Source: a virus
Lineage: Duplodnaviria > Heunggongvirae > Uroviricota > Caudoviricetes
Virus record (IMG/VR): IMGVR_UViG_2654587746_000006
Span: 1 to 35,411 of that record
Length of the DNA: 35,411 bases
Reading direction: 5' to 3' (one strand)
Shown: one piece after another, positions 1 through 35,411 of the stretch
Layout: each line of letters opens with the position of its first letter
Numbering within the stretch: the stretch's first letter is position 1
Translations under genes and position numbers: made by a program
Notes under the pieces: generated by a model
The model's input: only the letters and a program-made list of their open reading frames with translations
Told to the model about the DNA's origin: nothing
The model's database searches: none

Positions 1-258
1 ATGCAAACCGTTATTTTTGGTCGTCCGGGTTGCCCTTACTGTGTGCGTGCAAAAGATCTGGCTGAGAAATTGAGCAATGAACACGATGATTTTCAGTATC
101 ACTATGTAGATATTCGTGCGGAAGGGATCACTAAAGAAGATCTACAACAAAAGGCAGGTAAACCCGTAGAAACCGTGCCGCAGATTTTTGTCGATCAGCA
201 ACATATCGGCGGCTATACCGATTTTGCTGCATGGGTGAAAGAAAATCTGGACGCCTGA
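1..258 (+). CDS. grxA: Glutaredoxin 1
   Basis: 85-aa ORF with the CPYC redox motif (GRPGCPYCVRAK) and full-length glutaredoxin fold; sits next to ybjM/ybjL as in the E. coli chromosome. Confidence 0.95.
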   Translation: MQTVIFGRPGCPYCVRAKDLAEKLSNEHDDFQYHYVDIRAEGITKEDLQQKAGKPVETVPQIFVDQQHIGGYTDFAAWVKENLDA

Positions 259-267
259 TCGTCTGAC

Positions 268-300
268 AAGCCCTCGCGTTGAGGGCTTTACTGATTTTTT
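268..300 (+). terminator. Rho-independent terminator after grxA
   Basis: 8-bp stem aagccctc / gagggctt with 5-nt loop, followed by a T-run (ctgatttttt); overlaps the 3' end of convergent ybjM. Confidence 0.55.
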
Positions 301-665
301 CTGTGCTGTGGTTTAAACAAACTACTGATAAATAAGAAACACAGTGCCCCCAGCGCACACCAGAACACCGCACTTAATAACCATGCCAGCTCTTGCCAGA
401 ATGAGCGCGTCGGTGAAAAAAACAGCCGCATAATGAGCATCGAACAGGGTGCCGCCAGCATTGCGCCAAACAGAGGTTTCAGGACTTCTCTACGCTGTGA
501 AAAGAAGCTGGCGACTGCTCCAGGAAGAATGAAAAATAGCAAGCCGATTTCAGGATGCCCGGCAGCCCGAAAAGCGCCTTTCATGTGCGTCGCCAGAAAA
601 AGGCACACCACAATGAAGAGGACAAAACAGCAGATTGCCCCCGCCCAACGTTGTTTATGTTTCAC
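288..665 (-). CDS. ybjM: Inner membrane protein YbjM
   Basis: 125-aa strongly hydrophobic ORF convergent with grxA, in the conserved position between grxA and ybjL. Confidence 0.85.
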   Translation of the reverse strand: MKHKQRWAGAICCFVLFIVVCLFLATHMKGAFRAAGHPEIGLLFFILPGAVASFFSQRREVLKPLFGAMLAAPCSMLIMRLFFSPTRSFWQELAWLLSAVFWCALGALCFLFISSLFKPQHRKNQ

Positions 666-934
666 TCGTTCCTCCTGACACTGCGTCTATCGAACACATT
701 TTTCGCCAGTGTGGCGTTCAGTAAGATAAAGCCGCTTCGCATTCCATGCTAATATAGGCCAACGCAATTCATATAACCGTTGATACCTAATGTGATTACA
801 CTAGTAAAATATATTGTTACTTTACTATCGTTTAGGTGCGCTGAATGAATCTGCGCCCTGAATTCTGGTAAAAAACATTATCGTAAATTACCATTTCTTT
901 CAACAGCTTACTAGTAAACAAGAAGTTAGCCTCC

Positions 935-2620
935 GTGAATATAAACGTCGCCGAATTGTTAAATGGGAATTACATTCTGTTATTATTTGTGGTCCTCGCG
1001 CTTGGGCTATGTCTCGGAAAGTTACGACTTGGTTCGATCCAACTGGGTAATTCCATTGGCGTTTTAGTCGTATCGCTGTTATTAGGCCAACAACATTTCA
1101 GCATTAACACCGATGCGCTTAATCTTGGCTTTATGCTGTTTATTTTCTGCGTCGGGGTCGAAGCCGGACCGAACTTTTTTTCCATTTTTTTTCGCGATGG
1201 GAAAAATTACCTAATGTTAGCACTGGTGATGGTTGGCAGTGCGCTGGTGATCGCCTTAGGGTTAGGTAAGCTGTTTGGCTGGGATATTGGCCTGACGGCC
1301 GGTATGTTAGCAGGCTCTATGACGTCGACACCGGTTCTGGTCGGTGCTGGCGATACACTGCGTCATTCCGGCATGGAAAGCAGGCAGCTCTCACTGGCAC
1401 TGGATAATCTGAGCCTCGGGTATGCCTTAACCTATTTAATCGGTCTGGTGAGTTTGATTGTTGGTGCGCGTTACTTGCCGAAATTGCAGCATCAGGACTT
1501 ACAGACCAGCGCCCAGCAAATCGCCCGCGAACGTGGCCTGGACACTGATGCCAACCGTAAGGTTTATTTACCGGTGATCCGCGCCTATCGCGTCGGCCCG
1601 GAACTGGTGGCCTGGACCGACGGCAAAAATCTGCGTGAACTGGGTATTTATCGACAAACCGGCTGCTACATTGAACGTATTCGACGTAACGGGATTCTGG
1701 CAAATCCAGACGGTGATGCCGTGCTACAAATGGGCGATGAAATAGCGTTGGTAGGCTATCCCGACGCCCATGCCCGACTCGATCCCAGCTTCCGTAACGG
1801 TAAAGAAGTTTTCGATCGTGACCTTCTCGACATGCGTATCGTCACTGAAGAAGTGGTCGTTAAAAACCATAACGCTGTAGGTAAACGTCTCGCACAACTG
1901 AAGTTGACCGATCACGGTTGCTTCCTTAACCGCGTCATTCGTAGCCAGATTGAGATGCCGATAGATGACAACGTCGTGCTTAACAAAGGTGACGTTTTAC
2001 AAGTCAGCGGCGATGCCCGCCGCGTAAAAACCATCGCCGATCGCATCGGCTTTATCTCGATTCACAGCCAGGTCACTGACCTGCTGGCATTCTGCGCCTT
2101 CTTTGTTATTGGGCTGATGATCGGGATGATCACCTTCCAGTTCAGCACATTCAGTTTCGGCATGGGGAACGCTGCCGGGTTGTTATTCGCCGGAATTATG
2201 CTGGGCTTTATGCGTGCTAACCACCCGACCTTCGGTTACATTCCGCAGGGTGCATTAAGCATGGTGAAAGAGTTCGGCTTGATGGTGTTTATGGCAGGCG
2301 TTGGTCTGAGCGCCGGTAGCGGTATTAATAACGGCCTGGGCGCGATTGGCGGTCAGATGTTGATTGCCGGATTGATTGTCAGTCTGGTGCCCGTGGTTAT
2401 CTGTTTCTTGTTCGGTGCTTATGTATTGCGAATGAACCGCGCACTGTTGTTCGGCGCAATGATGGGCGCACGTACCTGCGCGCCGGCAATGGAGATCATC
2501 AGTGATACAGCTCGCAGTAACATCCCGGCGCTGGGCTATGCGGGCACCTATGCAATCGCCAACGTCCTGCTGACGCTGGCAGGGACAATCATCGTCATGG
2601 TATGGCCAGGATTAGGATAA
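935..2620 (+). CDS. ybjL: Putative transporter YbjL (AAE-family membrane domains with central TrkA-C/RCK_C-type region)
   Basis: 561-aa ORF with GTG start; hydrophobic N- and C-terminal halves flanking a soluble central region; recognised as E. coli YbjL. Confidence 0.93.
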
Positions 2621-2732
2621 AACTGAAGTTGCCCTGAAAATGAAATTTTTTTGCACAACCGCAGAACTTTTCCGCAGGGCATCAGTCTTAATTAGTGCCA
2701 CTGCTTTTCTTTGATGTCCCCATTTTGTGGAG

Positions 2733-2776
2733 CCCATCAACCCCGCCATTTCGGTTCAAGGTTGATGGGTTTTTTG
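2733..2776 (+). terminator. Rho-independent terminator downstream of ybjL
   Basis: Perfect 10-bp stem cccatcaacc / ggttgatggg around a 17-nt loop, followed by tttttt. Confidence 0.5.
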
Positions 2777-2855
2777 TTGCCTGAAATTTATGCCTTTTAA
2801 AATCATGATGTTAGAAGCACTGTTTTTTAATGATGGCGACAAATTGGCGGCAGCG

Positions 2856-3074
2856 TCAAAGAGAGAGCGCCACCTGTCCTGATTTCATTGGATGCGGCTG
2901 AACCGGATTTGACTCTTTTGGCGTTGCAATCGAACGAACAAAAGTTTCATGGGTAACAAAAGTATGGCTGCAGTTAATGTTCTGGCACTGGTTGTAACGC
3001 TCTTTGGTCAATGAAGATACCTGAAAACTGCTGCGAGTATGGGCGGCACTTCCACACAGTGGGCAAATCATCAT
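2856..3074 (-). CDS. ogr: Late-gene transcriptional activator, Ogr/186-B family zinc finger
   Basis: ~72-aa product from internal Met (MMICPLCGSAAHTRSS...CQNINCSHTF) with the C-x2-C...C-x4-C zinc-binding pattern of P2 Ogr; located after D as in P2. Confidence 0.85.
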   Translation of the reverse strand: MMICPLCGSAAHTRSSFQVSSLTKERYNQCQNINCSHTFVTHETFVRSIATPKESNPVQPHPMKSGQVALSL

Positions 3075-3164
3075 TTTTCGAGCTCTCCCCATTTTTGCTA
3101 AATTCACAATAATGATACCTCATTATTCCATTTTGAAAACTTAAAAGTTCTCCATTGCGAAGAA

Positions 3165-10325: not shown

Positions 10326-11459
10326 ATGAATCTACCATTTTCATTTATTTTAGCATTTTTCTGTATAATTGGTGCATTAGTCGCCTTCGGCTTACCGATA
10401 TTTAAATTTTTAGATGATGACATTCAGCAAAATCGTGCTAACGGTCTTGATGGAATGCGTTTTTATCTTGCATCATTCGTAATACTTCATCATATGGATT
10501 GCTCCTATTCATATTTTACAACCGGGGAATGGACCCCAATATCCCAGTGGCTTTTAACTATGGGAAAATATGGTGTAGCATTATTCTTCATGACAACAGC
10601 CTACTTATTTTGGGGGAAAATCAGGAACAAGAAAAATATTGATTGGGTAACCCTATATCAAAAAAGATTCCTTAGAATTGTCCCATTAGCTTTCTTTTGT
10701 TCATTCATGGGTATTTCTATACTTTTCATTTTCACGGAAAAAACCACATTAACTTTAACCACTATATCCAATATACTGTCCTGGTTTGATGGTAGCTTGT
10801 GGGATAATAAACCACCAGTAACGACTTTTCAGACTCCATTCATTGTGTTAGCCGGAGTTACGTGGACATTGAAATGGGAGTGGATGTTTTACTTTTCTCT
10901 TCCATTGCTATTTATTCTCAATAAAAAACCAATGGAACTGACTATTATTCTTTTTGCATTTTCGTTTTATTTATTGCCGTCCTTTACGAATACTGCATAT
11001 CTTTGGTCATATTTTTTTGCGGGGATGCTCTGCAGGGAGTTGAAAGAAAGAATTATCCTGTCCAAGACTAATGCAAATTATATTTTGATAGCTGCCATAC
11101 TGCTAACCTTTCTGTCAGCCCCTACATTATATAGCCCACCGGAGACTGCTTTCCTTGCTATTATTTTCTTTTGCATCATATCTGGAGCCGAACTCTTTGG
11201 CGCACTAACAACCAAAGCAGCCAAAAGATTAGGCGCGATTAGCTACAGTTTGTATCTCACACAGGGATTAGTACTTTTCCCAGTCTATAACTATCTGAAA
11301 TCCGCAAAAATGATGACTACTGGCCCCTTATTACTTTCGATACTTGTTATGACCTTCTTTGGCATTTGCCTGTTATCTACTTTCACTTATCATTTTATAG
11401 AATTACCGTTCATCAAAAAAATAAATAATAAATCATCAGACGGATTGCATAAAATTTAA
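10326..11459 (+). CDS. Acyltransferase family 3 integral membrane protein (O-antigen/LPS O-acetyltransferase-like); prophage cargo
   Basis: 377-aa polytopic membrane ORF with N-terminal signature NGLDGMRFYLASFVILHH (LDGxR...H of acyltransferase_3); visibly AT-rich; opposite strand to flanking tail genes. Confidence 0.85.
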   Translation: MNLPFSFILAFFCIIGALVAFGLPIFKFLDDDIQQNRANGLDGMRFYLASFVILHHMDCSYSYFTTGEWTPISQWLLTMGKYGVALFFMTTAYLFWGKIRNKKNIDWVTLYQKRFLRIVPLAFFCSFMGISILFIFTEKTTLTLTTISNILSWFDGSLWDNKPPVTTFQTPFIVLAGVTWTLKWEWMFYFSLPLLFILNKKPMELTIILFAFSFYLLPSFTNTAYLWSYFFAGMLCRELKERIILSKTNANYILIAAILLTFLSAPTLYSPPETAFLAIIFFCIISGAELFGALTTKAAKRLGAISYSLYLTQGLVLFPVYNYLKSAKMMTTGPLLLSILVMTFFGICLLSTFTYHFIELPFIKKINNKSSDGLHKI

Positions 11460-25156: not shown

Positions 25157-26914
25157 TTATACTTTGCACCTCTTTGAATAATCTGCAATAATTTCCTCAA
25201 TACCATCAAAAATAACTTTAAACTTTTCAAAACTAATTGTTTTACAATTTGCCTTTATAACCTTTGTTGAAAACACATGCTTACCATATTCTGTTTTTGT
25301 ATCCGTATCATTAGATTTATTAAATGTCTTTCCATCAAGCACCGTTGATAGTACCGTGCTATCAAATAAATCCTCCATACAAGACTCTTTCCCTCCAGGA
25401 AGCAATGGTGTTAATAACAAATAGAGATTGTCAAATATGTGGGTATACCTTGCCTTACGAATAGTATCAACATCATTTGGACAATTTTTTACTTTATCCT
25501 TTAAGTGATTTAATAAATCTTTAGGGCCTGAGTCATTATCAAGAAGCATAATAACAGGGTGCTTTGGTTTAAATTTCTCGAACCTCTTTTTTTGTTCTTG
25601 GTATCTTAATATAAATCTTTTGAAGTCTGTAGCACCGCCAGAAATGTCAAGAAAATAGCTTGTTTTTTCAGTTGCTTTAAAAAAATTAACACGATACTCA
25701 TTTTTAGAGCTATCATCAGAAGAATTAAACAATAAAGGATATGAATTCGCCAATGACTTCAAAGCACACTTTAAATATACACGGTCTGTTTTACCCTCAG
25801 TGAGTATTGTTGGCATTTCCATTCCATGAAAATTTTTATAGTATAGAAAATAACTGTAGGCTTTTTCTCTCGAATTCAATTTTGCAGTGTAGTTTAATCC
25901 ATGATTTACACTTTGGTACTTTTCCAACTGTCTTGCGTTCTTTAGTTTTAAATTATTATATTTATCTATTGAGTCAATAAATCCAAAACGGCCTTCTAAT
26001 TTAGCACATGTACCTTTTTCAATCTTTCCTGATTCAGTAACAATAACAAAAGAACCATCTTTATAAAGAGAATGAGCCATGGCACGCGTTACTTTTGCAT
26101 ATTCTTTGCCAACATTCACTTTTTTATTAACAGTCAACCCAGTAACATCTTGTCGTGATGTTTTATAACAAACCCTTGTCTTTTTATCATTTATTTTAAA
26201 GCCAGCCTTTATAATCTCTTTAATTAAAGTTGGACTTAGGGTTACAGACTCTCCGCCAACATCAGCAATCTCTTTTGGAAATGTTTTTTTATTAGTTGAA
26301 AATGTAAGATCATCAGCATACCGTGAATAATTGCATCCGTATTTCTTTGCTAACTTTGATAATCTTATATCAAGAATTCCACTGATTAAGTTACTTATAA
26401 TTGGAGAGCATGGGCTTCCTTGAGGAAGTCCATTCTGAAAACATGCAATTTGTGCGATCGTTGTAGCAACAGTATTATTTAATCTAAAATCTCTGTTTGA
26501 TAAGAAAAAACCTCTAACACGTCCAAAATTAAAACTATCAAAATAATCCTCAAGGTCTATATTTAGTAGTAGCGTTTTACCTCTATGCCGTTCAGCATTC
26601 GTAATAATTGACTTTTCTTTTTCAAACCCATGAGATAAAACTGGATTAATATTATATTTTTTATAAATTTCCGCACGACATAAATATAAAACATCAGCTA
26701 ATCTACGTTGAATATCTTTGAGCTTAGTGGTAGGTGCTGATATGACTCTCGGCGCTCCGTTTTTTTTAGGGATAGTAAATTGTGTATACTGCGTTTCAGC
26801 TTTTAAACGATAAATAACATCCGTAAGAAAAGCAGTTTTAAGATTCAAGATACTAGCCAAATCTTGCCTGTTAGCAGCGTTTTGTAAACGTTCTAAAATT
26901 GATAGGGGTGCCAT
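25157..26914 (-). CDS. ret: Retron-type reverse transcriptase with C-terminal TOPRIM-like domain
   Basis: 585 aa; RT motifs NAERH (NAxxH), LLNIDLEDYFDS, QGSPCSP, YADD, VTG; C-terminal ~220 aa with TOPRIM-like Glu (ILTEGKTD) and DxD (LLDNDSG); AT-rich; preceded by msr/msd-like region. Confidence 0.9.
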   Translation of the reverse strand: MAPLSILERLQNAANRQDLASILNLKTAFLTDVIYRLKAETQYTQFTIPKKNGAPRVISAPTTKLKDIQRRLADVLYLCRAEIYKKYNINPVLSHGFEKEKSIITNAERHRGKTLLLNIDLEDYFDSFNFGRVRGFFLSNRDFRLNNTVATTIAQIACFQNGLPQGSPCSPIISNLISGILDIRLSKLAKKYGCNYSRYADDLTFSTNKKTFPKEIADVGGESVTLSPTLIKEIIKAGFKINDKKTRVCYKTSRQDVTGLTVNKKVNVGKEYAKVTRAMAHSLYKDGSFVIVTESGKIEKGTCAKLEGRFGFIDSIDKYNNLKLKNARQLEKYQSVNHGLNYTAKLNSREKAYSYFLYYKNFHGMEMPTILTEGKTDRVYLKCALKSLANSYPLLFNSSDDSSKNEYRVNFFKATEKTSYFLDISGGATDFKRFILRYQEQKKRFEKFKPKHPVIMLLDNDSGPKDLLNHLKDKVKNCPNDVDTIRKARYTHIFDNLYLLLTPLLPGGKESCMEDLFDSTVLSTVLDGKTFNKSNDTDTKTEYGKHVFSTKVIKANCKTISFEKFKVIFDGIEEIIADYSKRCKV

Positions 26915-26949
26915 ATCTAAAAATCAACCTTGATTATCAGTTAGGGTAG

Positions 26950-26962
26950 GCACATGTAGGCA
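26950..26962. repeat. Retron inverted repeat a2 (gcacatgtaggca on + strand)
   Basis: Perfect reverse complement of 27068-27080. Confidence 0.7.
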
Positions 26963-27067
26963 CTCTTACGCAAAGCATAGGACAGCCCAAGAATGGCTAC
27001 AAGGATGTCAGAAGGCGAATCCATCTAACATTTAGATCACTGATTGCGATACCACAACCAACAAATC

Positions 27068-27080
27068 TGCCTACATGTGC
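27068..27080. repeat. Retron inverted repeat a1 (tgcctacatgtgc on + strand)
   Basis: Perfect reverse complement of 26950-26962. Confidence 0.7.
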
Positions 27081-27159
27081 ATGCTTAAGCTACCATGATC
27101 ATTTAAGAATGTGAAGAACCGTTAACAGTTTTGAAAGAGCCAGATCATAGCATTGCGCG

Positions 27160-27190
27160 CGCTCGTATCCCCGCCACGCCTGCCCGCTTT
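27160..27190 (-). other. Candidate cos (cohesive-end) site of the P2/186-like phage
   Basis: Minus strand reads GGCGTGGCGGGGA..., resembling my recollection of P2/186 cohesive ends (GGCGAGGCGGGGAAAGCAC type); oriented toward the portal gene. Confidence 0.45.
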
Positions 27191-27225
27191 ATGTAGTGGT
27201 TTTCATGCACCTGCATGATCTACAC

Positions 27226-27250
27226 AAAAGCCCGCCAGTTCTGGCAGGCC
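27226..27250 (-). terminator. Candidate terminator of the SOS-controlled operon
   Basis: Imperfect GC-rich hairpin gcccgccag..ctggcaggc followed on the minus strand by tttt. Confidence 0.4.
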
Positions 27251-27383
27251 TTAGCAAAAACGATCCTCAAACGATCATGCGATCTCATGCGGCATAGACA
27301 TGCACCACAGAGCTAACGCCTCGCACAGCTCGTTGTTCAACCTTGCTGACGCCAGAAGCAAGTTCAGACGCCAGCAACGTTTC

Positions 27384-27617
27384 TTAATGCAGCCAGCTGT
27401 CGTCTTCCCACACCTTCTGCATAATTTTCATCACTTGCTTCCTTTCTTCGTCCAGTTGCAGTCCGGTCAGTTCCACACCGTTAGAGCTACCTTTGCGGAT
27501 ACGAATTACCGTTTTGGGATACAGGGGGCGCAGATTACGGTAAAGCTCGGATTCAAGGGCGTCTAGGGTAGACTGGCTAATCTTCTGCTCTTTATCGATC
27601 ATTATTTCAATGCGCAT
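27384..27617 (-). CDS. dinI: DinI-like protein (DNA-damage-inducible protein I family)
   Basis: ~78 aa from Met MRIEIMIDKEQ... with GAGGTG RBS; resembles E. coli DinI (MRIEV... WE..D.W); ORF track extends 24 codons upstream. Confidence 0.8.
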   Translation of the reverse strand: MRIEIMIDKEQKISQSTLDALESELYRNLRPLYPKTVIRIRKGSSNGVELTGLQLDEERKQVMKIMQKVWEDDSWLH

Positions 27618-27627
27618 AAAAGTCACC

Positions 27628-27816
27628 TCAACTGATGACATCCATTGAGCGGTTGTATTCGTGGGTTCTGATTTTTGCCATGAGTTCATCTGTTAGTTCA
27701 GAAACCCACTGTAAAGCCAGCCCCTTCTCTTCATCACTACACTCACTAGCCGCTACAAGCTTAAGAAAAAAATCAATGCGCTGGAGCTTCAAAGACTCCA
27801 AAAAATAGTCCTGCAT
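27628..27816 (-). CDS. Small hypothetical protein, first gene of LexA-box operon (possible Tum-like antirepressor module)
   Basis: 62 aa from Met MQDYFLESLK... with AGGAGG RBS 4 nt upstream; directly downstream of SOS box; overlaps dinI-like start by ~11 nt. Confidence 0.5.
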   Translation of the reverse strand: MQDYFLESLKLQRIDFFLKLVAASECSDEEKGLALQWVSELTDELMAKIRTHEYNRSMDVIS

Positions 27817-27857
27817 CTTTCCTCCTATGACACCACAAGAAATACTGTATACATAAC

Positions 27858-27877
27858 CACTGTTTATAATTACAGTA
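27858..27877 (-). promoter_or_regulatory. LexA (SOS) box overlapping a sigma70-like promoter
   Basis: CTGT-ttataatt-ACAG (27860-27875) fits CTGT-N8-ACAG; minus strand shows TTTACA - 17 nt - TACTGT -35/-10 candidates overlapping the box. Confidence 0.6.
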
Positions 27878-27969
27878 TATAATAATCTTACTGATGTAAA
27901 ACGTTTTTTTACGTTCATCAGCCTGATATGCCTGGTATTATTAAGAGCACGGATTGTTAACCCGCGTGA

Positions 27970-30384
27970 TTAATACAGGTTCCGCCACTTATCATCTTCC
28001 TGCAAACGCTGGTTCCGATAGAAGATACGCAGGCCTGCTCCTGACGGAATACTGCCACCGCGAAGGAGCAAATCGACCTCTTTCTCGCTGCCATCAAATC
28101 CTCTGGACTTCAGTTCATAGACGAGTTGCTGACGCTGATACTCTGTAATTCGCTGTTTGTAGTCTTTACGCCGTTTCGGTTTAACCAGGCGTAATCTTGC
28201 TGCCAGTTCCCGGCGCTCTTTTTTGCTCATACTGTGCAGGTAATCGTGCAACTCCTTGTCATCCATGCGGGTGATATCCGTTCTGGTATCCCCATCAGCT
28301 GATTTGTCTTTCCCTTGTTGGTTCAAATTTTCAGCAAGGGGACAGTTATTGCCACGAGTCCAAGGGGCGCAAGCGCCCTGGTCGGCTGCCGCCTCCTGAA
28401 CGTCAACGGCCTTACGAACCATTTTCCACTTCACTGCATGAGTGCAGATCTTGCCCTCTGCAATGGGTGACCAGATGCCATAAATACGAATACCGTGATC
28501 ACCATAGGCGGTCGGCTCTTCGTTGATTTCATAAGCGGTTCTGATCAAGTGATATTTGCGGGGAACCAACACGCCGCCCTGCTTCATAATGTAGGTGGCA
28601 AAACAGCCAGCATCAGCAGCAGCCAGAATGGCATCAAGACGCGGATCATCCAGTACCGGCGCACCTGCTTTTTTGTCACCCTGCTGCCTTGCCGCCTGAC
28701 CAGCCAGCAATCGCAGTTCACGGTAAGCCTGACGCCCCGGAATGCCAAAGAAGCGGAATTGCTGAACACGATGCAGAGACGCCCAGGCATTAACGTATTC
28801 AGCGTTATCACGCAGGGATTTACCCGTTTCCTTGCTGATCTCGCCAGCCAGACCACGCCCGTCAATGTTCTTACTGATGTATTTCGCGATGTAGCTTGTC
28901 GGCGTTCCTTTGCGCGGGTTAATCAGCTCAGACTTAAAGCGTGGCCCCGTGTTATTGCCCAGTTCCTCGCGGTCTTCACGGATGGCAAACTTACGCAGTA
29001 ATGCAGTGATGGCGCGGCGGTCTTTTTTACGTATGAAGCACATGAGATGCCAGTGCACAGTACCGTCATGATGCGGCTCAGCCACCCGCACGCCATACCA
29101 CCGCAATCCGGCTTTGTGCATCGCCTTACGAAATGCAGCAAACATGCCGACCAGATAATCACTGCTTTGTCTTACCGTCGCATTTGTCCAGGTCGGGTTT
29201 GGTCTGCCGTTATTGAGCGTGGAATGGAAACGTGACGGACAGGTGATGGTGTAGAAAACGGCGCAGTCACCGCGCATTTCCGCGATAAGCTCCAGACCTT
29301 TAACGCAGGCCATCATCTCATTGCGGCGATGTGCCGGGTTGCTGCTGCTGGCGTTTACCACATCTTCCATATCCAGCGTGTCTCCGTCTTCGTTCACCAG
29401 TTCATGAGAACGGAAAAACTCCAGCGACTTGCGGCGCTGCTCACGTTTATGCGTCACTGCTTCATAGCTGACATAGGGAGATGCTTTTTTGCTGACCAGA
29501 CAGACAGCACGCAACTGCTCTTCCCGCCATTCGCAACGCATCTTCCACAATTTTCGATACCACCAGTCGGCGCAAAGCATACGTGCCAGCGAACCCGGTA
29601 TGAGTTCATAGGGCACAGGTTTGCGGCGGTTTCTTTTCCGACGAAGTTTCTCAAACGCAGGCGGGATAACATCCAGACGCAGGGTTTCCGCAGCCACCTT
29701 TTCCCATGTCTTGCGGATTTCTTCTGGCTTAACGTCATCGGTGGCGTACAAATCACCACAAGCGGCCTCAAGACACATGCTCATATGCGCTGCTACCAGG
29801 GTGGACAGGCGTTTCACCTGATCCTGGCTCATTTCAGGCAGGATCAGCAGCCCCTCCAGCCCTTGATGGCTTGCCATAAAACGGAAAGAAACAGATAGCT
29901 GACTGTCACGTACACAATCCAGTCGCTCCAGACATGGCTTAATCGTCTCACGCAAATAGCGGGAATAAGCCTTTGGCCTGCCCAGGCTGCTGAAGTATTC
30001 GATACGTTGCATCAGCGGCTTGCTGATATGAGAAGGCTGGGCGCTGACATCTGCCAGAATGACCATGTCCGGGTTAAAACGCTGCTGCTCATGCGCCAGC
30101 TTTGCCCGGCTAATGAGCTTATCCTGCTCCATTTCGCGCTGGACAGGATCACGGGATTCATTAAAGAAATAACGCTCCCAGACCTGCTCACTCAGTGCCT
30201 CGCGGCGCAGTTGTTCCTGCTCGTTATCGGCAGCGTACAGAGTGATCAGGTTTGAAAGTGCAGACTCCGGCGCAACTTCCGCCGGATCCAGATAAGGGTT
30301 AATGGCCTTTTTCGGGCCGTTCCATGAAAATGCTGCGGCAGCCTCGTTAAAGCCGCTAGAGTTGCTCATATCGTCATGACTCAT
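27970..30384 (-). CDS. Replication initiation protein, P2 gpA-like rolling-circle nickase
   Basis: 804-aa ORF with HUH-type and tyrosine motifs (TVHWHLMCF; [10 protein letters not shown]); last gene of the early operon. Confidence 0.88.
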
Positions 30385-31238
30385 ACACGCACCTCGTACA
30401 CAGCAGAACTATCCACGCCACGCGAAGGATCAAATCCCATCCAGCAGCGCGACCCGGAAACAGCAATGATTTCTGTTGCAGATTTACTCTCGCCAGCTGA
30501 CACGCCGATGCTGCGTTTTGCCTTGATGTAGTGGTGAGTGAAATTGCGATACAGCGAACGGATCAGGGATGTGTCACTGTTAGAAACAATGACCGGATGA
30601 CCTTCTGATGATCGATATTCAAGAACGGATGCCAGGTGATACTGGTCATCTTCAGTGAAGCCGTCAGTGTGATAACCGGAAAACGTGCCGTCATACGGCG
30701 GATCGCAATACACCACATCCCCCGCCTTCAACATCGCCAGCGTTTCATCAAAGCTGGCGCAGATAAACGTTGCTCGCTGGGCCTTTTCTGCAAATGCGTG
30801 AATTTCTTTTTCAGGGAAATACGGATTTTTATAATTACCGTAGGGAATGTTGAAATGCCCGCTCTTGTTATAGCGACATAAACCACGGTAACCGTGACGA
30901 TTGAGATACAGGAAATATACCGCTTTCATGAAATCAGTAATTTCAGTTGAGTAATTAAACTCCTGCCTTATGTTGTAATAAGCTAGGTCACTGTTTGCTT
31001 CCTCAAACAAAGTTCTGGTCCGCGATATAAACGCCTCGCAATCAGCGGCAATCTTTTTATAGAGGTTGATTAAATCAGGATTAATATCCGCAACCAGATA
31101 GCTGGGGTAATCCGTCTCCATCATCACAGCACAGGAACCCGCGAAAGGTTCAACCAGTCGCGGGCCAGCAGGTAGGTATTTTTTCAGTTCGGACATAATT
31201 GCGGTTTTATTTCCCGCCCATTTCAGGATGGTGCTCAT
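30381..31238 (-). CDS. dam: DNA adenine methyltransferase (Dam-like, orphan)
   Basis: ~285 aa from Met [11 protein letters not shown]...; motif [11 protein letters not shown] and motif IV DPPY; stop overlaps A start; no adjacent restriction endonuclease gene. Confidence 0.88.
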
Positions 31239-31462
31239 ACAGCACCTCCGTTGTAATGTTTGCCTTTCAGCTCTGCGATTTCCTGACAGGTAATGCAAAG
31301 CTGCACTCCAGGAATGGCACGGCGGCGTGCTGGCGGAATTGGTGCTTCACATTCAATGCAAAGCACGCGAGACACGCCCGGTGTTTTGGCACGGGCAGCA
31401 CGGATATGGCGCTGGCGTTCTTCTTCAACGCGCTGCTGTACGAGATCCATTGCATCAGCCAT
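31235..31462 (-). CDS. DksA/TraR-family C4 zinc-finger protein
   Basis: 75 aa with CIECEAPIPPARRRAIPGVQLCITCQ; start overlaps upstream stop (TAATG). Confidence 0.8.
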   Translation of the reverse strand: MADAMDLVQQRVEEERQRHIRAARAKTPGVSRVLCIECEAPIPPARRRAIPGVQLCITCQEIAELKGKHYNGGAV

Positions 31463-31695
31463 TAGTGGATCTCCTGCGCTTCGTTCTGGATTGCTTCAGC
31501 GGTCACACGCAGCAGTTCTGCTGCTTCGACGTGGTTTAGCTGGCGGGATGTGATATGACACGCCAGGCTATCAAGGCGGGCAGCCATTGCCTCAGCCCTT
31601 GCCCGACGTTCTTCAAGTCGGGCCTCTGTCAGTAAAAGATTAAGACCTGCATCATCCGGTCCGGTTTTAGTCGTGAGGGTTTCAATATTACGCAT
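31462..31695 (-). CDS. Hypothetical early-operon protein
   Basis: ~77 aa from ATG (MRNIETLTTK...) with AGGAG RBS; translationally coupled to downstream gene. Confidence 0.6.
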   Translation of the reverse strand: MRNIETLTTKTGPDDAGLNLLLTEARLEERRARAEAMAARLDSLACHITSRQLNHVEAAELLRVTAEAIQNEAQEIH

Positions 31696-31762
31696 AATCA
31701 ATTCTCCTGAATTTAGATAAAGGGATGCCCGGCGGGTTTACGCCATGAATTTTATTTATTGG

Positions 31763-32104
31763 TTAATTCGGCATGGTTAGCCGTCTGGGAAATAAGCTCA
31801 CCACTGCACGAAAATGATTCATTGCTTTAATCAACTCCCGCTTTTCGTCAGTGGTCAGCTCATTAATGCTGATGCTATGACGTTCAGCTGGAATTTTTGC
31901 CATAAAGAATATGGCAGCCAGTGCTCGTTTATTTTGTTCGTTATTGATATCCCGTGGATCACGCATATCTTTAATAAACCGCTCAAGCTCTGACTCAATA
32001 TTCAGGCCAAATACTTTCGCCCTTAACTCCGCAATGTGATTAAGTCCATTCAGGCGTTCACCGGGGCTTAATGGAACAGTCGCCGCAGCGCCATTAATTG
32101 CCAT
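31763..32104 (-). CDS. Hypothetical early-operon protein
   Basis: 113-aa ORF with GGGGA RBS; no recognisable motif. Confidence 0.55.
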   Translation of the reverse strand: MAINGAAATVPLSPGERLNGLNHIAELRAKVFGLNIESELERFIKDMRDPRDINNEQNKRALAAIFFMAKIPAERHSISINELTTDEKRELIKAMNHFRAVVSLFPRRLTMPN

Positions 32105-32126
32105 AATTCATATCCCCAAAACGCAA

Positions 32127-32351
32127 CTATCGTTCTTTGTTCTTACGGTAACGTTCAAGAGGAGATACATTTTTTCGTATCGTTTCTTTAACCTGCTCTC
32201 CCCGTAAAAACGTCCCATCCCTTAGCGTGAAAAAGTAACTGCCATCGCCCGACAACGACGGATAACAACAGAGCAAATCATCTTCAGGTACTGAATAACT
32301 CTCCCCTCTGTAACGAAACTGATAAACCACTTCACTTTCCGCTGCATACAT
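32127..32351 (-). CDS. Hypothetical early-operon protein
   Basis: 74-aa ORF with GGAG RBS ~9 nt upstream; overlaps the end of an upstream ORF in another frame. Confidence 0.5.
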   Translation of the reverse strand: MYAAESEVVYQFRYRGESYSVPEDDLLCCYPSLSGDGSYFFTLRDGTFLRGEQVKETIRKNVSPLERYRKNKER

Positions 32352-32518
32352 TTTGACTTTCTCCGTTTCCTCGTGGTCAATTCAGACAGCAATTCATCTT
32401 GTGAATGACATGGATGCCAGCGTTTACCATCCTCACCCATGATCCAGCCGTGACCGTAGTGCATTGCCGGGCTTTGTTTTACCAGCAGCGATGCAAATGA
32501 TGGTTCTTTCGTCAGCAT
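32222..32518 (-). CDS. Hypothetical ORF overlapping the 74-aa gene (status uncertain)
   Basis: 98 aa from Met MLTKEP... with GAGGTG RBS 8 nt after cII stop; C-terminal third is Cys/Arg-rich and overlaps the next gene. Confidence 0.3.
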   Translation of the reverse strand: MLTKEPSFASLLVKQSPAMHYGHGWIMGEDGKRWHPCHSQDELLSELTTRKRRKSKCMQRKVKWFISFVTEGRVIQYLKMICSVVIRRCRAMAVTFSR

Positions 32519-32525
32519 AAGCACC

Positions 32526-33035
32526 TCACAGCAAACCGAATGAAGCACCGAGGCCAGTCACGGTATCAACTGCACTCGCCATCGCAGGATTAGCCTGTAA
32601 ACGGGCCTGCAATGAAACAGCAGCCAACGCCATCAGTCGTGTAACAGAGTTAATGCTGCTGATCGCATCACGACGGCCTGCACTGGTTTTTACATCGCCA
32701 GATACCGCACCTGCAGCAACACGCCCGATCTCTGCGGTTGCACTCATGACGTAATGTGGCAGTTTCTCTTTTGCCACCTCATTAATCGGTACACATGGCA
32801 GACAATGAATCTGTGCCAGAAAACCATCTACCAGCGTTGAATCTTCAGTCAGATCGGTAAGCAGCCAGATTTCTGGTGCGGTTAATAAATGAGGTTGAGC
32901 TGGGTTCAGCTTGTTCCGCAGAATCTGCACATTCATGCCAGCACGTTCTGCCAGTTGCACCAGGTTGTGGCGCAATGCGAATGCACGACAGGCTTCATCA
33001 AAATGTGGATGTTTGGAAACTTGGTAATCAAACAT
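32526..33035 (-). CDS. cII: CII-type lysogeny establishment regulator (186 CII / CP76 family)
   Basis: 169 aa from ATG ([19 protein letters not shown]...); matches my recollection of 186 CII in length and N-terminus. Confidence 0.8.
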
Positions 33036-33067
33036 GGTCAATGCCTCTGATGTATCTCAGAATCGAA

Positions 33068-33289
33068 CTAATTAAGGTTTAGATTGCATTCTGAAAGCGC
33101 ATCAACGGTCATTGCTGCTATGTTGATCATCACTTTTTCGCGTTTTTTATCTTTGCGCAGACGGTGACGGATAAGGCGTCCATCAGCCAACATGTCATTG
33201 ATGGTATCGATGGATAGCCCTGTCAGCTCGCTATAGCGTTCAATAGTCACATGAGGCGTGGTAAGAGTGATTGAAATGTTAGGTCTCAT
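33068..33289 (-). CDS. apl: Apl/Cox-like excisionase and lytic-promoter regulator
   Basis: 73-aa basic HTH-like ORF, first gene of the lytic operon, divergent from cI. Confidence 0.65.
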
Positions 33290-33414
33290 GATGCAACATT
33301 CCTCGTTTAATGATGATTAATCAGGACGAATACGGATCGTTTGTATTTTGTGAACACCATAAACATACGATCGCGCAGTGAAATCGTCAAGATAAAAGTT
33401 CACTTGGAGTGACC

Positions 33415-33984
33415 ATGAATTTGGAGAAAGGCGGACGAGGCGCTATAGAGCGCATGGTAGAAGCTTATGGATTCAAGACTCGACAGGCGTTGTGCGATCA
33501 TTTAGGAATCTCTAAAAGTACACTCGCCACACGCTACATGCGTGACTCATTCCCAGCAGAATGGGTAATCCAGTGCGCCCTTGAAACAGGCACCTCGCTT
33601 AATTGGCTCACAACCGGGCATGGTTCAAAGCAAACTTCAGGTAATACAAATACTATGGAAGTTGCTAAATATGTATTATCTGATGGGGCCTTGTGTGAAG
33701 ACGGTTTTTATATTTTCGATAGAGAATTTCTACCGTCGGCATTCAAGAATCTTTTTGTAATCACAGATAATAATTCTGAATTTATTTGTGATAAGGAATT
33801 TGATGATATACGTGATGGTAAATGGGTAATAAGTATTGATGGCGAAATAACGATCCGTGACATTACTCGTTTACCCGGTGGAAGAATCTTCGTCGAGGGT
33901 GGAAACAGAGCCTTCGAATGCAAGATAGAAGACATTGAAATAATTGGTAAAATTATAAGTTTAACAGTCAAGTATGTTAAATAG
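33415..33984 (+). CDS. cI: Immunity repressor CI (186 type, no S24 peptidase domain)
   Basis: ~189 aa from ATG (MNLEKGGRGAIERMVEAYGF...ALETG..LNWLTTGHG); no Ser-Lys autoprotease motif seen; divergent from apl-like gene. Confidence 0.85.
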   Translation: MNLEKGGRGAIERMVEAYGFKTRQALCDHLGISKSTLATRYMRDSFPAEWVIQCALETGTSLNWLTTGHGSKQTSGNTNTMEVAKYVLSDGALCEDGFYIFDREFLPSAFKNLFVITDNNSEFICDKEFDDIRDGKWVISIDGEITIRDITRLPGGRIFVEGGNRAFECKIEDIEIIGKIISLTVKYVK

Positions 33985-33999
33985 TACCGGGAGGAAATT

Positions 34000-34191
34000 A
34001 TGCTTGGTAAGGTATTTTTTGTGGTTTTGTCATGTTCTTTGTTATTAAACCCACTAGCTACCTATGCTAGAAATTATCCCTGCTCAGGGAAAAAGGGAGG
34101 TGTTTCTCACTGTACCTCTGATGGCAAATTCGTTTGCAATGATGGAACTATTAGTAAATCCAAAAAAATCTGTACTAAAAACTCACGATAA
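34000..34191 (+). CDS. Small secreted Cys-rich protein (cargo between cI and int)
   Basis: 63 aa with GGGAGG RBS; signal peptide [23 protein letters not shown] then ~40-aa mature part with 4 Cys; AT-rich. Confidence 0.55.
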
Positions 34192-34379
34192 CTTTTGCTT
34201 TTATATCTGCGCCTAAAATAAAAATGAGCCACAGGTTAACCGCAAAAGTTACATGCTCACATAGCAAAAAGAATAGCCTACTTCATTATGGCTTCAGTGA
34301 GATGTATGGTCGCAGGATTTCATACATTGACACTGGTTATACATACAGTAAAAATGCTCTCTATTGGAGGGCATTTTTT

Positions 34380-35411
34380 ATGGCTGTACGAAAACTCACC
34401 ACAGGAAAATGGCTTTGCGAATGTTACCCCGCCGGACGTAGTGGGCGTCGTGTGCGTAAACAATTCGCCACCAAAGGCGAAGCACTGGCTTTTGAGCGTC
34501 ACACGATGGAAGAAACCGAAGCAAAGCCCTGGCTGGGTGAATCAGTGGATCGTCGAACACTGAAAGACGTGGTTGAGCTATGGTTCAAACTACATGGTAA
34601 ATCACTGACTGCTGGGCAGCATGTCTATGACAAATTGCTGCTGATGGTTGACGCTCTGGGCAATCCCCTTGCAACTGATCTCACATCTAAAATGTTTGCC
34701 CACTATCGAGATAAACGCCTGACAGGTGAGATCTACTTCAGCGAGAAATGGAAGAAAGGAGCAAGCCCGGTCACCATTAACCTGGAGCAAAGCTATCTAA
34801 GTAGTGTTTTTAGCGAACTATCCCGCCTGGGCGAATGGTCGTATCCGAACCCACTGGAGAACATGCGAAAATTCACCATCGCAGAAAAAGAGATGGCATG
34901 GCTTACCCATGAGCAGATTGTTGAATTGCTGGCTGATTGCAAACGTCAGGACCCAATTCTGGCACTGGTAGTTAAGATATGCTTAAGCACAGGCGCACGT
35001 TGGCGTGAAGCCGTAAATCTTACCCGCTCACAGGTGACCAAATACCGAATTACCTTTGTAAGAACGAAGGGGAAGAAAAACAGAAGCATCCCTATCAGTA
35101 AAGAGCTTTACGAAGAGATCATGGCGCTTGATGGGTTCAATTTCTTTACAGACTGCTATTTTCAATTTTTATCCGTGATGGAAAAAACGTCTATCGTGCT
35201 CCCTCGCGGTCAACTGACACACGTTCTGCGCCATACGTTTGCGGCGCACTTCATGATGTCGGGTGGAAATATCCTGGCCTTACAAAAAATTCTCGGGCAT
35301 CACGATATAAAAATGACTATGCGTTACGCACATCTGGCACCGGATCACCTGGAAACTGCATTACGGTTTAATCCGCTGGCAACACTACCAACATCAATAG
35401 CAAGTTTTTGA
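34380..35411 (+). CDS. int: Tyrosine integrase (P2/186 family)
   Basis: ~343 aa from Met MAVRKLTTGKWLCECYP... with GGAGG RBS; catalytic signatures TGARWREA, HVLRHTFAAH, MRYAHLAPDH; stop codon is the last 3 bases of the window. Confidence 0.9.
   Translation: MAVRKLTTGKWLCECYPAGRSGRRVRKQFATKGEALAFERHTMEETEAKPWLGESVDRRTLKDVVELWFKLHGKSLTAGQHVYDKLLLMVDALGNPLATDLTSKMFAHYRDKRLTGEIYFSEKWKKGASPVTINLEQSYLSSVFSELSRLGEWSYPNPLENMRKFTIAEKEMAWLTHEQIVELLADCKRQDPILALVVKICLSTGARWREAVNLTRSQVTKYRITFVRTKGKKNRSIPISKELYEEIMALDGFNFFTDCYFQFLSVMEKTSIVLPRGQLTHVLRHTFAAHFMMSGGNILALQKILGHHDIKMTMRYAHLAPDHLETALRFNPLATLPTSIASF

Follow-up and report, generated by a model that had tools for sequence, protein, structure and literature searches.

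Why should a prophage carry a DNA adenine methyltransferase gene directly in front of its replication gene A when its usual hosts (E. coli, Salmonella and Klebsiella) are Dam-positive? The question is raised by a locus in a DNA stretch of 35,411 nucleotides, which is referred to below as the window. The window holds a Fels-2-like prophage of the Peduoviridae with 186-type immunity, whose insertion adjoins rybB/ybjL and which has an Ec67-family retron on board. Among complete E. coli genomes no exact match to the window was found, the best one showing 97% identity over 90%, and a search of the literature revealed no defined role for this methylase in P2-family phages.

As outlined in Table 1, the gene (dam) lies on the minus strand. 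Its open reading frame (ORF) runs from the ATG at 31238..31236 to the TGA at 30383..30381 and encodes 285 aa, so that the ORF of about 285 aa given in the initial annotation is real; the same 858-base gene is annotated by RefSeq in relatives. The protein matches Pfam PF02086 over profile positions 1-253 of 253 (E = 2e-75, 254 bits versus a cut-off of 22) and TIGR00571 with 320 bits (cut-off 114.85), and the best PADLOC model is 'orphan methyltransferase' (365 bits). Sequence searches against solved structures returned E. coli Dam in several entries including 2g1p and 4gol (4e-73 for 2g1p), DpnM (4e-34) and T4 Dam (4e-17), and since the sequence matches solved Dam structures the Dam fold can be regarded as settled. 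Alignment to E. coli Dam and T4 Dam had been proposed as a check; the former is 46% identical in a global, full-length alignment. Family membership is thus supported by computation, and profiles, alignment and PADLOC together strongly support the proposed orphan Dam-like adenine methyltransferase. The score for the housekeeping Dam equivalog NF008152 (285.6 bits) falls below the cut-off of 441, and judged by its sequence the protein is a phage paralogue distinct from the host housekeeping dam.

The motifs, likewise supported by computation, required one correction. DPPY (residues 179-182) and the ten-letter motif I stretch (residues 29-38) were found as described, whereas the literal FxGxG was not: the third glycine is replaced by cysteine, giving FxGxC (FAGSC). 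In an alignment of six Dam proteins the phenylalanine and the central glycine of motif I are invariant and the third position is G, C or A; the literal FxGxG is not universal in the Dam family, and its third position varies in other aligned phage Dams, too. DPPY is invariant across the six proteins, and the loss of catalytic motifs on careful alignment, which had been named as grounds for rejecting the identification, was not seen. The DPPY codons of the window gene themselves contain a GATC. Comparison with copies from E. coli, Salmonella and Klebsiella gave dN/dS values of 0.13-0.20; the protein sequence is under purifying selection.

Table 1 Coordinates of the dam locus and the early operon in the window.
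Feature	Position	Strand	Evidence
Candidate early lytic promoter pR	33362..33390	minus	promoter scan; alignment with mapped 186 pR
apl-like gene	33068..33289	minus	gene order as in 186, Fels-2, RE2010
cII gene	32526..33041	minus	PF06892; gene order as in 186, Fels-2, RE2010
TraR/DksA-type C4 zinc-finger gene, immediately before dam	31235..31462	minus	PF01258 3e-11; phrog_54
ATGA overlap, zinc-finger ORF stop / dam start	31235..31238	minus	sequence
dam, 285-aa Dam-family (D12 class) N6-adenine DNA methyltransferase gene	30381..31238 including stop codon	minus	PF02086, TIGR00571, E. coli Dam match
Motif I (AdoMet binding), F32-A-G34-S-C36	31131..31145	minus	aligns with E. coli Dam F35-V-G37-A-G39
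Motif IV, catalytic DPPY, residues 179-182	30693..30704	minus	aligns with E. coli Dam 181-184
ATGA overlap, dam stop / gene A start	30381..30384	minus	sequence
Gene A, rolling-circle replication initiator, 804 aa	27970..30384	minus	PF05840 1.8e-127

The position of dam in the early operon is supported by computation as well. The apl-like gene and cII open this operon and dam and A close it; membership is indicated by the strand, by the gene order apl-cII-...-A, by the location downstream of a pR aligned to the mapped 186 pR and by the divergence from cI. Because dam is located in this operon downstream of a pR-like promoter, it is probably expressed early. When the origins annotated in P2 and 186 are aligned to the window, the origin nick is predicted near 28361, within gene A; the GATC sites of this neighborhood (28447-28644) are not part of the nick motif conserved with P2 and 186.

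On this basis we consider it likely that the gene is an active orphan Dam specific for GATC, made from pR in lytic growth only, coupled to A and topping up the methylation of progeny DNA. The ORF would encode an S-adenosylmethionine-dependent N6-adenine methyltransferase without a cognate restriction enzyme. As penultimate gene of apl-cII-...-zf-dam-A (zf, the zinc-finger gene) it would be transcribed solely from the CI-repressed pR, and ribosomes would be passed on via the ATGA stop/start overlaps at both of its ends, so that with this hand-over and the shared operon methylase and replication initiator would appear together. Its most likely job would be to supplement the methylation of GATC when the Dam of the host, being scarce, cannot keep pace with rolling-circle replication. 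The DNA of the progeny could then be packaged in fully methylated form, would resist enzymes cutting unmethylated GATC and would be unmethylated or hemimethylated only briefly, these being the forms recognised by MutH and SeqA. As the specificity would be redundant with that of Dam-positive hosts, any benefit must be quantitative.

The promoter that presumably drives dam provides the only fresh lead of this analysis, namely a conserved GATC. The pR candidate consists of a -35 element TTGACG (33385..33390), a 17-nt spacer and a -10 element TATGTT (33362..33367); no other promoter-like site was found on the minus strand from 26800 to 33500, and the promoter pattern, when checked on 186, recovers exactly the annotated pR. 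The spacer contains a GATC (33369..33372), which a single base separates from the -10 element. For comparison, 146 loci were collapsed to 34 promoter families, 16 of them dam-carrying and 18 dam-less. GATC at -17..-14 is present in 10 of the 16 dam-carrying families versus none of the 18 dam-less ones (Fisher p = 6e-5, uncorrected for common descent of switch and replication module). GATC is the commonest 4-mer at this position; the other spacer bases and the flanking inverted repeats vary between families. Furthermore, the site is present in the Fels-2 pR, and the record of 186 places CI operators over the pR stretch.

These observations would fit a methylase that mainly regulates its own phage: methylation of the GATC by host or phage Dam would alter CI binding or the use of pR by RNA polymerase, and Dam made from pR would keep new copies methylated, locking or timing the lytic decision. 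We regard this as unlikely to be the main role, notwithstanding that it can coexist with the topping up of progeny methylation. Six dam-carrying families do not have the site, and loci that lost dam retain the GATC (L102, L106, L109, L111, L113 and L114). Five dam-less families show another register, with GATC abutting the -10 element, so that host Dam could serve equally, and the GATC of pR may simply belong to a conserved CI half-site. SopEphi, the sole relative with reported Dam-dependent excision (PMC7380047), has GATT at this place and was for that reason discarded as evidence that Dam controls pR. Literature reports of unmethylated GATC in Fels-2 were not found. A wider version appears similarly doubtful to us: phage Dam and a pR GATC in the CI operator region might form a self-methylating circuit in which the methylation state of pR tunes repression or promoter strength and Dam made from pR quickly remethylates replicated copies. 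Such a circuit would commit the Fels-2-like lysis-lysogeny switch epigenetically or set its timing, with the slot before A acting as a cassette site for DNA-modification genes tied to the translation of the replication initiator.

The assignment of GATC as target relies on the residues which we take to be the base readers of E. coli Dam (K9, L122, R124 and P134), the intercalating Y119 and also Y138, together with R95, N126, N132 and K139 as presumed further base or phosphate contacts; this contact list reportedly stems from the 2006 structure paper on E. coli Dam. All of these residues are conserved in the window protein along with D54 and DPPY, the equivalents of K9, L122, R124, P134, Y119 and Y138 being K6, L120, R122, P132, Y117 and Y136. 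Changes are found at N120 (to R) and R137 (to N) and in a 5-residue deletion after DPPY. Together with the score of 286 bits under the equivalog cut-off of 441 they could point to an adenine methylase that recognises another target than GATC or a broader set of targets, and that would thus guard against a larger number of restriction systems than the Dam of the host. However, N120 and R137 are presumably contacts to the orphan thymine and to a phosphate rather than base readers, the base readers and the intercalating tyrosine are all kept, and the full-length identity to E. coli Dam amounts to 46%, which makes a deviating specificity very unlikely. A 2015 methylome study (PMC4659465) can be cited in favor of it, as it describes a prophage D12 Dam homologue in EC958, which may or may not share the lineage of the window dam and whose close homologues had no determined recognition site. 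This homologue, M.EcoMIV, was reported to be poorly transcribed in the lysogen; it was sought in three regions, one of them a P2-like prophage, and no dam gene was found in any. Activity as a GATC-specific enzyme remains the reading that we prefer.

The initial annotation had stated that the dam stop overlaps the start of A, and this proved accurate: the minus strand at the junction reads GTATGAGT, in which the TGA of dam and the ATG of A (30384..30382) share ATGA. The Shine-Dalgarno sequence of A (GAGG, 30392..30395) lies inside dam, and no notable local RNA structure was predicted at this junction (z = -0.5). At the other end, the Shine-Dalgarno sequence of dam (GGAGG, 31245..31249, minus strand) is paired in a predicted hairpin that presents the dam AUG in its loop (RNA fold of 31190..31310, z = -4.06). 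According to the GenBank record of phage 186, translating the ORF in the slot before A to its end appears to be needed for the translation of A, and in analogy we infer that dam is translationally coupled to A. Overlap and 186 note together would even allow an inactive protein, its ORF being retained solely as a leader whose translation brings ribosomes to A. Such a leader is exceedingly improbable, given that the dN/dS values indicate selection on the protein sequence and that the catalytic and cofactor motifs are intact; moreover, gene A does not need dam, because dam-less relatives place the zinc-finger gene directly before A.

The absence of a restriction partner, claimed for the neighborhood of the gene, was borne out over a wider range. 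No restriction endonuclease was found among the scanned ORFs of the early region, the retron slot, the tail end and the host flank of the window, which belong to phage structural, regulatory or replication families or are the retron reverse transcriptase (RT), an acyltransferase or host genes. The head/lysis/baseplate block (about 14.5-22 kb) was judged via the RefSeq annotation of a 97%-identical relative, in which only phage structural and lysis genes are annotated. The neighbors of dam are the zinc-finger gene and A, which is not the arrangement of a Type II restriction-modification (R-M) system. The window contains 126 GATC sites, and their observed/expected ratio of 0.75 does not stand out among the 4-base palindromes, so neither avoidance nor enrichment of GATC is observed in it and its composition bears no signature of restriction pressure.

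The retron deserves separate consideration. The abstract of the 1990 report on the Ec67 element is said to describe an ORF of 285 residues with about 44% identity to Dam, which fits the 285 aa and 46% of the window ORF. The RT of the window belongs to the Ec67 family (NF038237, 723 bits), and the records of Fels-2 and SopEphi, which have the same gene order, label the homologue 'similar to retron EC67 DNA adenine methylase'. The title of that report (Hsu, Inouye and Inouye 1990, PNAS 87:9454) names RT and Dam methylase functions, and the carrier of the Ec67 methylase is described as a 186-related prophage of about 34 kb (Hsu et al. 1990; Dodd and Egan 1996, Virology 219:115). The statement that a Dam methylase had been reported within the Ec67 retron-containing element is therefore correct, and the first description of the methylase dates from 1990. 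Both elements combine a Dam homologue and an Ec67-type retron in a 186-related prophage and may or may not be the same element.

The comparative data separate the two genes. An identical dam in another strain adjoins RelA/SpoT and ParA cargo without a retron, and dam is present in 1,232 genomes, compared with about 10 that match most of the retron segment. As judged from these sequences, dam belongs to the prophage backbone and not to the retron. An Rfam scan of the window returned RybB only, the retron ncRNA giving no match at the gathering threshold. As a component of the retron (Eco2, type I-C) dam was rejected; it shows no co-variation with RT or ncRNA and is found beside unrelated cargo. 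A distance of 3.5 kb between RT and dam, one relative whose cargo slot contains a gene labelled 'restriction endonuclease', and the triggering of another retron, Sen2, by Dam overproduction via GATC in its msDNA are outweighed by the missing nuclease partner in the scanned ORFs and in the relative's annotation, by the unrelated cargo and by the genome counts, and further by the predicted msd template (roughly 26963..27029), which contains no GATC by hand reading, and by Eco2/Ec67 being reportedly triggered by phage nucleases in a paper that makes no mention of Dam or GATC (PMC12916289). A dam acting as the modification half of an R-M system or as a functional part of the Ec67-type retron thus appears already contradicted by the comparative data and can be dismissed almost entirely.

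The gene is widespread, being annotated in 1,239 of 5,426 complete E. coli genomes (about a quarter), and the same dam occurs in Fels-2, SopEphi, RE2010 and Klebsiella phages; in every record listed its two neighbors are again the zinc-finger gene and A. It is absent from relatives with the same replication module (L102, L106, L111 and L113), in which the zinc-finger gene runs straight into A, and is therefore dispensable. We take dam to be accessory and non-essential, its place between the DksA-like zinc-finger gene and A being a variable slot.

The gene call itself adds nothing, as the gene has been known since 1990 and is named by standard pipelines. In the discussion of Ec67-type elements the methylase should be kept apart from the retron, and the GATC of pR together with the variable modification-gene slot before A offers a cheap, testable idea why a methylase duplicating the specificity of the host is so frequent in these phages.

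Compared with known systems, the dams of Fels-2 (STM2730), SopEphi (orf8), RE2010 and Klebsiella Kapieceevirus prophages are closest: they are 858-base genes with the neighbors and overlapping annotated ends of the window gene, those of RE2010 and Klebsiella ST11phi8.4 share 93-95% protein identity with it, and all are one gene lineage. These relatives differ by a few percent divergence and by other cargo and immunity alleles. In 186 and P2 the same slot between zinc-finger gene and A is occupied by orf84 (PAPS-reductase-like) and orf83 (DUF5405), respectively, which are non-essential and end overlapping the A start like the window dam, but whose proteins are unrelated to Dam; 186 and P2 carry no Dam. 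T4 Dam and P1 Dam, the latter cited as GATC-specific, belong to the same superfamily and are likewise phage-borne orphan enzymes for GATC, yet they are distant in sequence and reside in lytic or plasmid-prophage genomes and other gene contexts. With E. coli Dam, finally, the window protein shares the alpha-class D12 fold order, DPPY, the cofactor residues and the presumed GATC contacts, while it differs in its FAGSC motif I and a different 25-residue C-terminal tail and is encoded in a CI-repressed lytic operon instead of the host dam operon.

The dam gene of the window codes for an orphan Dam methylase that is already known from Fels-2-like prophages and annotated there as a matter of routine; the finding of the initial annotation is correct and ordinary. 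PF02086 (D12 class N6-adenine methyltransferase, Pfam) matches the protein end to end (2e-75), NCBIfam TIGR00571 (Dam family, cut-off 115 bits) scores it at 320 bits, PHROG 56 is matched as well, and the best-scoring PADLOC model is 'orphan methyltransferase', all in accordance with the proposed Dam-like orphan enzyme of about 285 aa. Solved-structure matches comprise E. coli Dam (4e-73), DpnM (4e-34) and T4 Dam (4e-17); the alignment to E. coli and T4 Dam suggested as a check favoured the assignment, with 46% global identity to the E. coli enzyme and DPPY kept. In E. coli Dam K9, L122, R124 and P134 read the GATC bases, Y119 intercalates and R95, N126, N132 and K139 contact phosphates; all of these residues, together with D54, are kept in the aligned window protein. 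The two proteins differ by N120 to R, R137 to N, a five-residue deletion after DPPY and the C-terminal tail. Furthermore, the housekeeping Dam equivalog scores the window protein at 286 bits, under its cut-off of 441 bits, which marks it as a phage paralogue.

The motifs first reported were DPPY and FxGxG. DPPY and the ten-letter motif I peptide quoted for the latter are both present, but motif I reads F-A-G-S-C, a cysteine standing in place of the last glycine of FxGxG; across E. coli Dam and five Peduoviridae Dams this last residue varies, and the F and the central G are the same in all. Compared pairwise with the copies in another E. coli, in Salmonella phage RE2010 and in a Klebsiella prophage, dam gave dN/dS values of 0.13-0.20, and judging from these ratios selection acts on the Dam protein, beyond mere maintenance of the reading frame.

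A mechanical ORF listing extends the frame to 305 aa from an alternative TTG start, and the 858-base gene is the RefSeq choice in identical and near-identical copies. As the initial annotation had stated, the dam stop overlaps the start of A, the replication initiator gene: ATGA is common to the dam TGA and the A ATG, and at the level of sequence this connection with A is genuine. In analogy, an ATGA overlap joins the end of the TraR/DksA-type zinc-finger ORF to the dam start, where a hairpin over the Shine-Dalgarno sequence is predicted (fold z = -4.06 for 121 nt, RNA folding). At the dam/A junction no unusual structure was seen by the same method. At 46.7%, the G+C content of dam is lower than that of the window (51.0%) or of A (53.0%), which would fit a cassette that came from another source. 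The 90%-identity protein cluster holding the window Dam also lists 804-aa replication endonucleases, one of them the cluster representative; this mixture could be a clustering artefact or go back to gene calls in which Dam and A were fused over the shared ATGA.

Features of the window considered in the analysis, in window coordinates
Feature	Position	Strand	Remarks
dam	30381..31238	-	285 codons, ATG with GGAGG ahead, TGA end (sequence reading)
A	27970..30384	-	predicted nick near 28361
zinc-finger gene	31235..31462	-	
predicted hairpin at dam start	31230..31255	-	GGAGG paired with codons 4-5, AUG in loop
candidate pR	33362..33390	-	
pR GATC	33369..33372	-	one base upstream of the -10 of pR
pR spacer positions 7-11	33374..33378	-	
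minus-strand genes, right to left		-	apl-like, cII, small unnamed ORF, DUF5347, DUF2732, zinc-finger gene, dam, A, small ORF, DinI/Tum-like
cI, int		+	
further genes			retron RT, portal, terminase, then head, lysis, tail genes
RT-Toprim fusion, Ec67 family	25157..26914	-	585 aa; NF038237 723 bits; PADLOC RT-Toprim_I-C
candidate retron ncRNA	about 26950..27080	-	inverted repeats a1 (about 27068..27080) and a2 (about 26950..26962), hand reading
GATC-rich segment	27035..27281		247 bases
Acyl_transf_3 acyltransferase gene	10326..11459	+	opposite strand, between tail sheath and tail fibre assembly genes
63-aa ORF	34000..34191	+	between cI and int, signal-peptide-like N-terminus
left host flank	1..3100		ybjM, ybjL-type transporter, RybB sRNA (2700..2778)
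right end	34224..35411		window ends at the integrase stop

The window represents a prophage of the P2 family whose immunity is of the 186 type. Its gene A shares 97% identity with the Fels-2-type A found in RE2010 and Klebsiella phages and only 35% with 186 A, and the P2/186 origin motif is kept within it. Two strains that have the window's integrase continue on the right into rcdA-ybjJ. The initial annotation had found no restriction endonuclease gene nearby, and indeed none occurs among the early-region, retron-slot, tail-end and host-flank ORFs scanned directly, nor in the annotation of a 97%-identical relative, from which absence in the head/lysis/baseplate block (about 14.5-22 kb) was taken. 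One relative carries an annotated 'restriction endonuclease' and an ASCH-domain gene in the retron-side cargo slot, away from dam; both are absent from the window. The Acyl_transf_3 gene looks like lysogenic-conversion cargo, and relatives have invertase and alternative fibre genes at its position. The 63-aa ORF matches NCBIfam NF007463 (PRK10040-type hypothetical protein) with 115 bits.

The gene is widespread. Megablast found it in 1,239 of 5,426 complete E. coli genomes, and every match listed is annotated 'DNA adenine methylase' and neighboured by a 'TraR/DksA family transcriptional regulator' and a 'replication endonuclease'. The gene is also present in 56 phage records, chiefly of Klebsiella and Salmonella Peduoviridae, Dam homologues overall in 1,181 phage records (tblastn), and the identical protein, named DNA adenine methylase, on 329 contigs. 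The Dam methylase that the initial annotation named for the Ec67 element is borne out by the title of Hsu, Inouye and Inouye 1990, on RT and Dam methylase functions, by the records of Fels-2 STM2730 and SopEphi orf8 (similar to 'retron EC67 DNA adenine methylase') and by a later paper, in which that element is summed up as 34 kb long and including a Dam ORF; the same paper cites Dodd and Egan 1996 for retron Ec67 lying within a 186-related prophage.

In the window the retron fills the cargo slot, flanked by the portal and DinI-like genes. The candidate ncRNA lies upstream of the RT, and two other strains have the 330 bases there without any difference. Its predicted msd presumably differs from the canonical Ec67 msd, and hand reading found no GATC in the msd template. 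The methylase lies outside the retron unit, and their association is historical and positional, not functional: a 100%-identical dam occurs in a prophage with RelA/SpoT-domain and ParA genes as cargo instead, at least 80% of the retron segment was matched in about 10 genomes versus 1,232 for dam, Eco2 is reported to respond to phage nucleases (PMC12916289), and triggering by Dam is known for a different retron, Sen2, via GATC in its msDNA. The segment around the cargo boundary holds seven GATC, about 0.9 being expected; three of them crowd into 20 bases shortly before a terminator-like hairpin at this boundary, which was recognised by eye and not listed by a consensus scan, and two of these three are kept in relatives with different cargo.

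Expression of dam would proceed from pR and by coupling to its neighbours. From 26800 to 33500 the promoter scan gave a single sigma-70-like site on the minus strand, the candidate pR, which aligns position by position with the experimentally mapped 186 pR. In 186, CI represses pR, and the early lytic operon is transcribed from it as far as A (186 record). A ribosome completing the zinc-finger ORF would then open the hairpin over the dam Shine-Dalgarno sequence.

In order to survey pR, 80 viral loci and 80 from species-representative genomes were gathered with the cII profile; the promoter pattern recovers exactly the annotated 186 pR, and 146 loci gave 76 unique promoter cores in 34 families, called dam-carrying if a Dam homologue lies between cII and A. 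GATC, the commonest 4-mer at -17..-14, stands there in 10 of 16 dam-carrying families versus 0 of 18 dam-less ones (Fisher p = 6e-5, kinship ignored). Six dam-carrying families are without it at that site, five dam-less families have GATC in the neighbouring register, abutting the -10, and several loci that lost dam still have the pR GATC. Fels-2 has it and SopEphi reads GATT. The remaining spacer and the flanking inverted repeats (putative CI operators) vary among families. This distribution suggests that methylation of GATC may affect pR or its operator in phages of this group; the conserved early-promoter GATC is a new lead and the only element that might repay work. Among 35 loci of the window's immunity type, spacer positions 7-11 are multi-allelic with up to four alleles per position, the adjoining GATCG and the -10 hexamer are invariant, and other intergenic positions show scattered, mostly biallelic sites only.

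Since the usual hosts are Dam-positive, the specificity of the phage enzyme is probably nothing new to them. Host Dam has been described as limiting for higher-copy DNA. Read most economically, the phage gene would supply additional capacity for methylating GATC, arriving together with the replication initiator. Rolling-circle products could thereby be fully methylated ahead of packaging, which would protect against enzymes cutting unmethylated GATC and spare the phage the effects that MutH and SeqA have on DNA in the unmethylated or hemimethylated state. Composition is uninformative on this role, GATC standing at 0.75 of expectation in the window, similar to other palindromes.

Evidently, dam belongs to a set of accessory cassettes that can replace one another and lead into the A start; several of these are DNA-modification enzymes. 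Among the relatives gathered with the cII profile the slot from the DksA-like zinc-finger gene to A is variable: it is empty or holds Dam, Dam with a C5 cytosine methyltransferase, Dam with a PAPS-reductase-like protein, the latter alone, a 276-aa protein without family, or DUF5405 (example loci L096, L098, L109, L114, L019, L140; L004; L008). In dam-less relatives the zinc-finger gene can directly precede A, which is consequently independent of dam itself. P2 differs in having a DUF5405 ORF where the window has dam. In 186 three non-essential ORFs fill the slot, the last of them PAPS-reductase-like and overlapping A with its end, and according to the 186 record translation of A appears to need translation to the end of that ORF.
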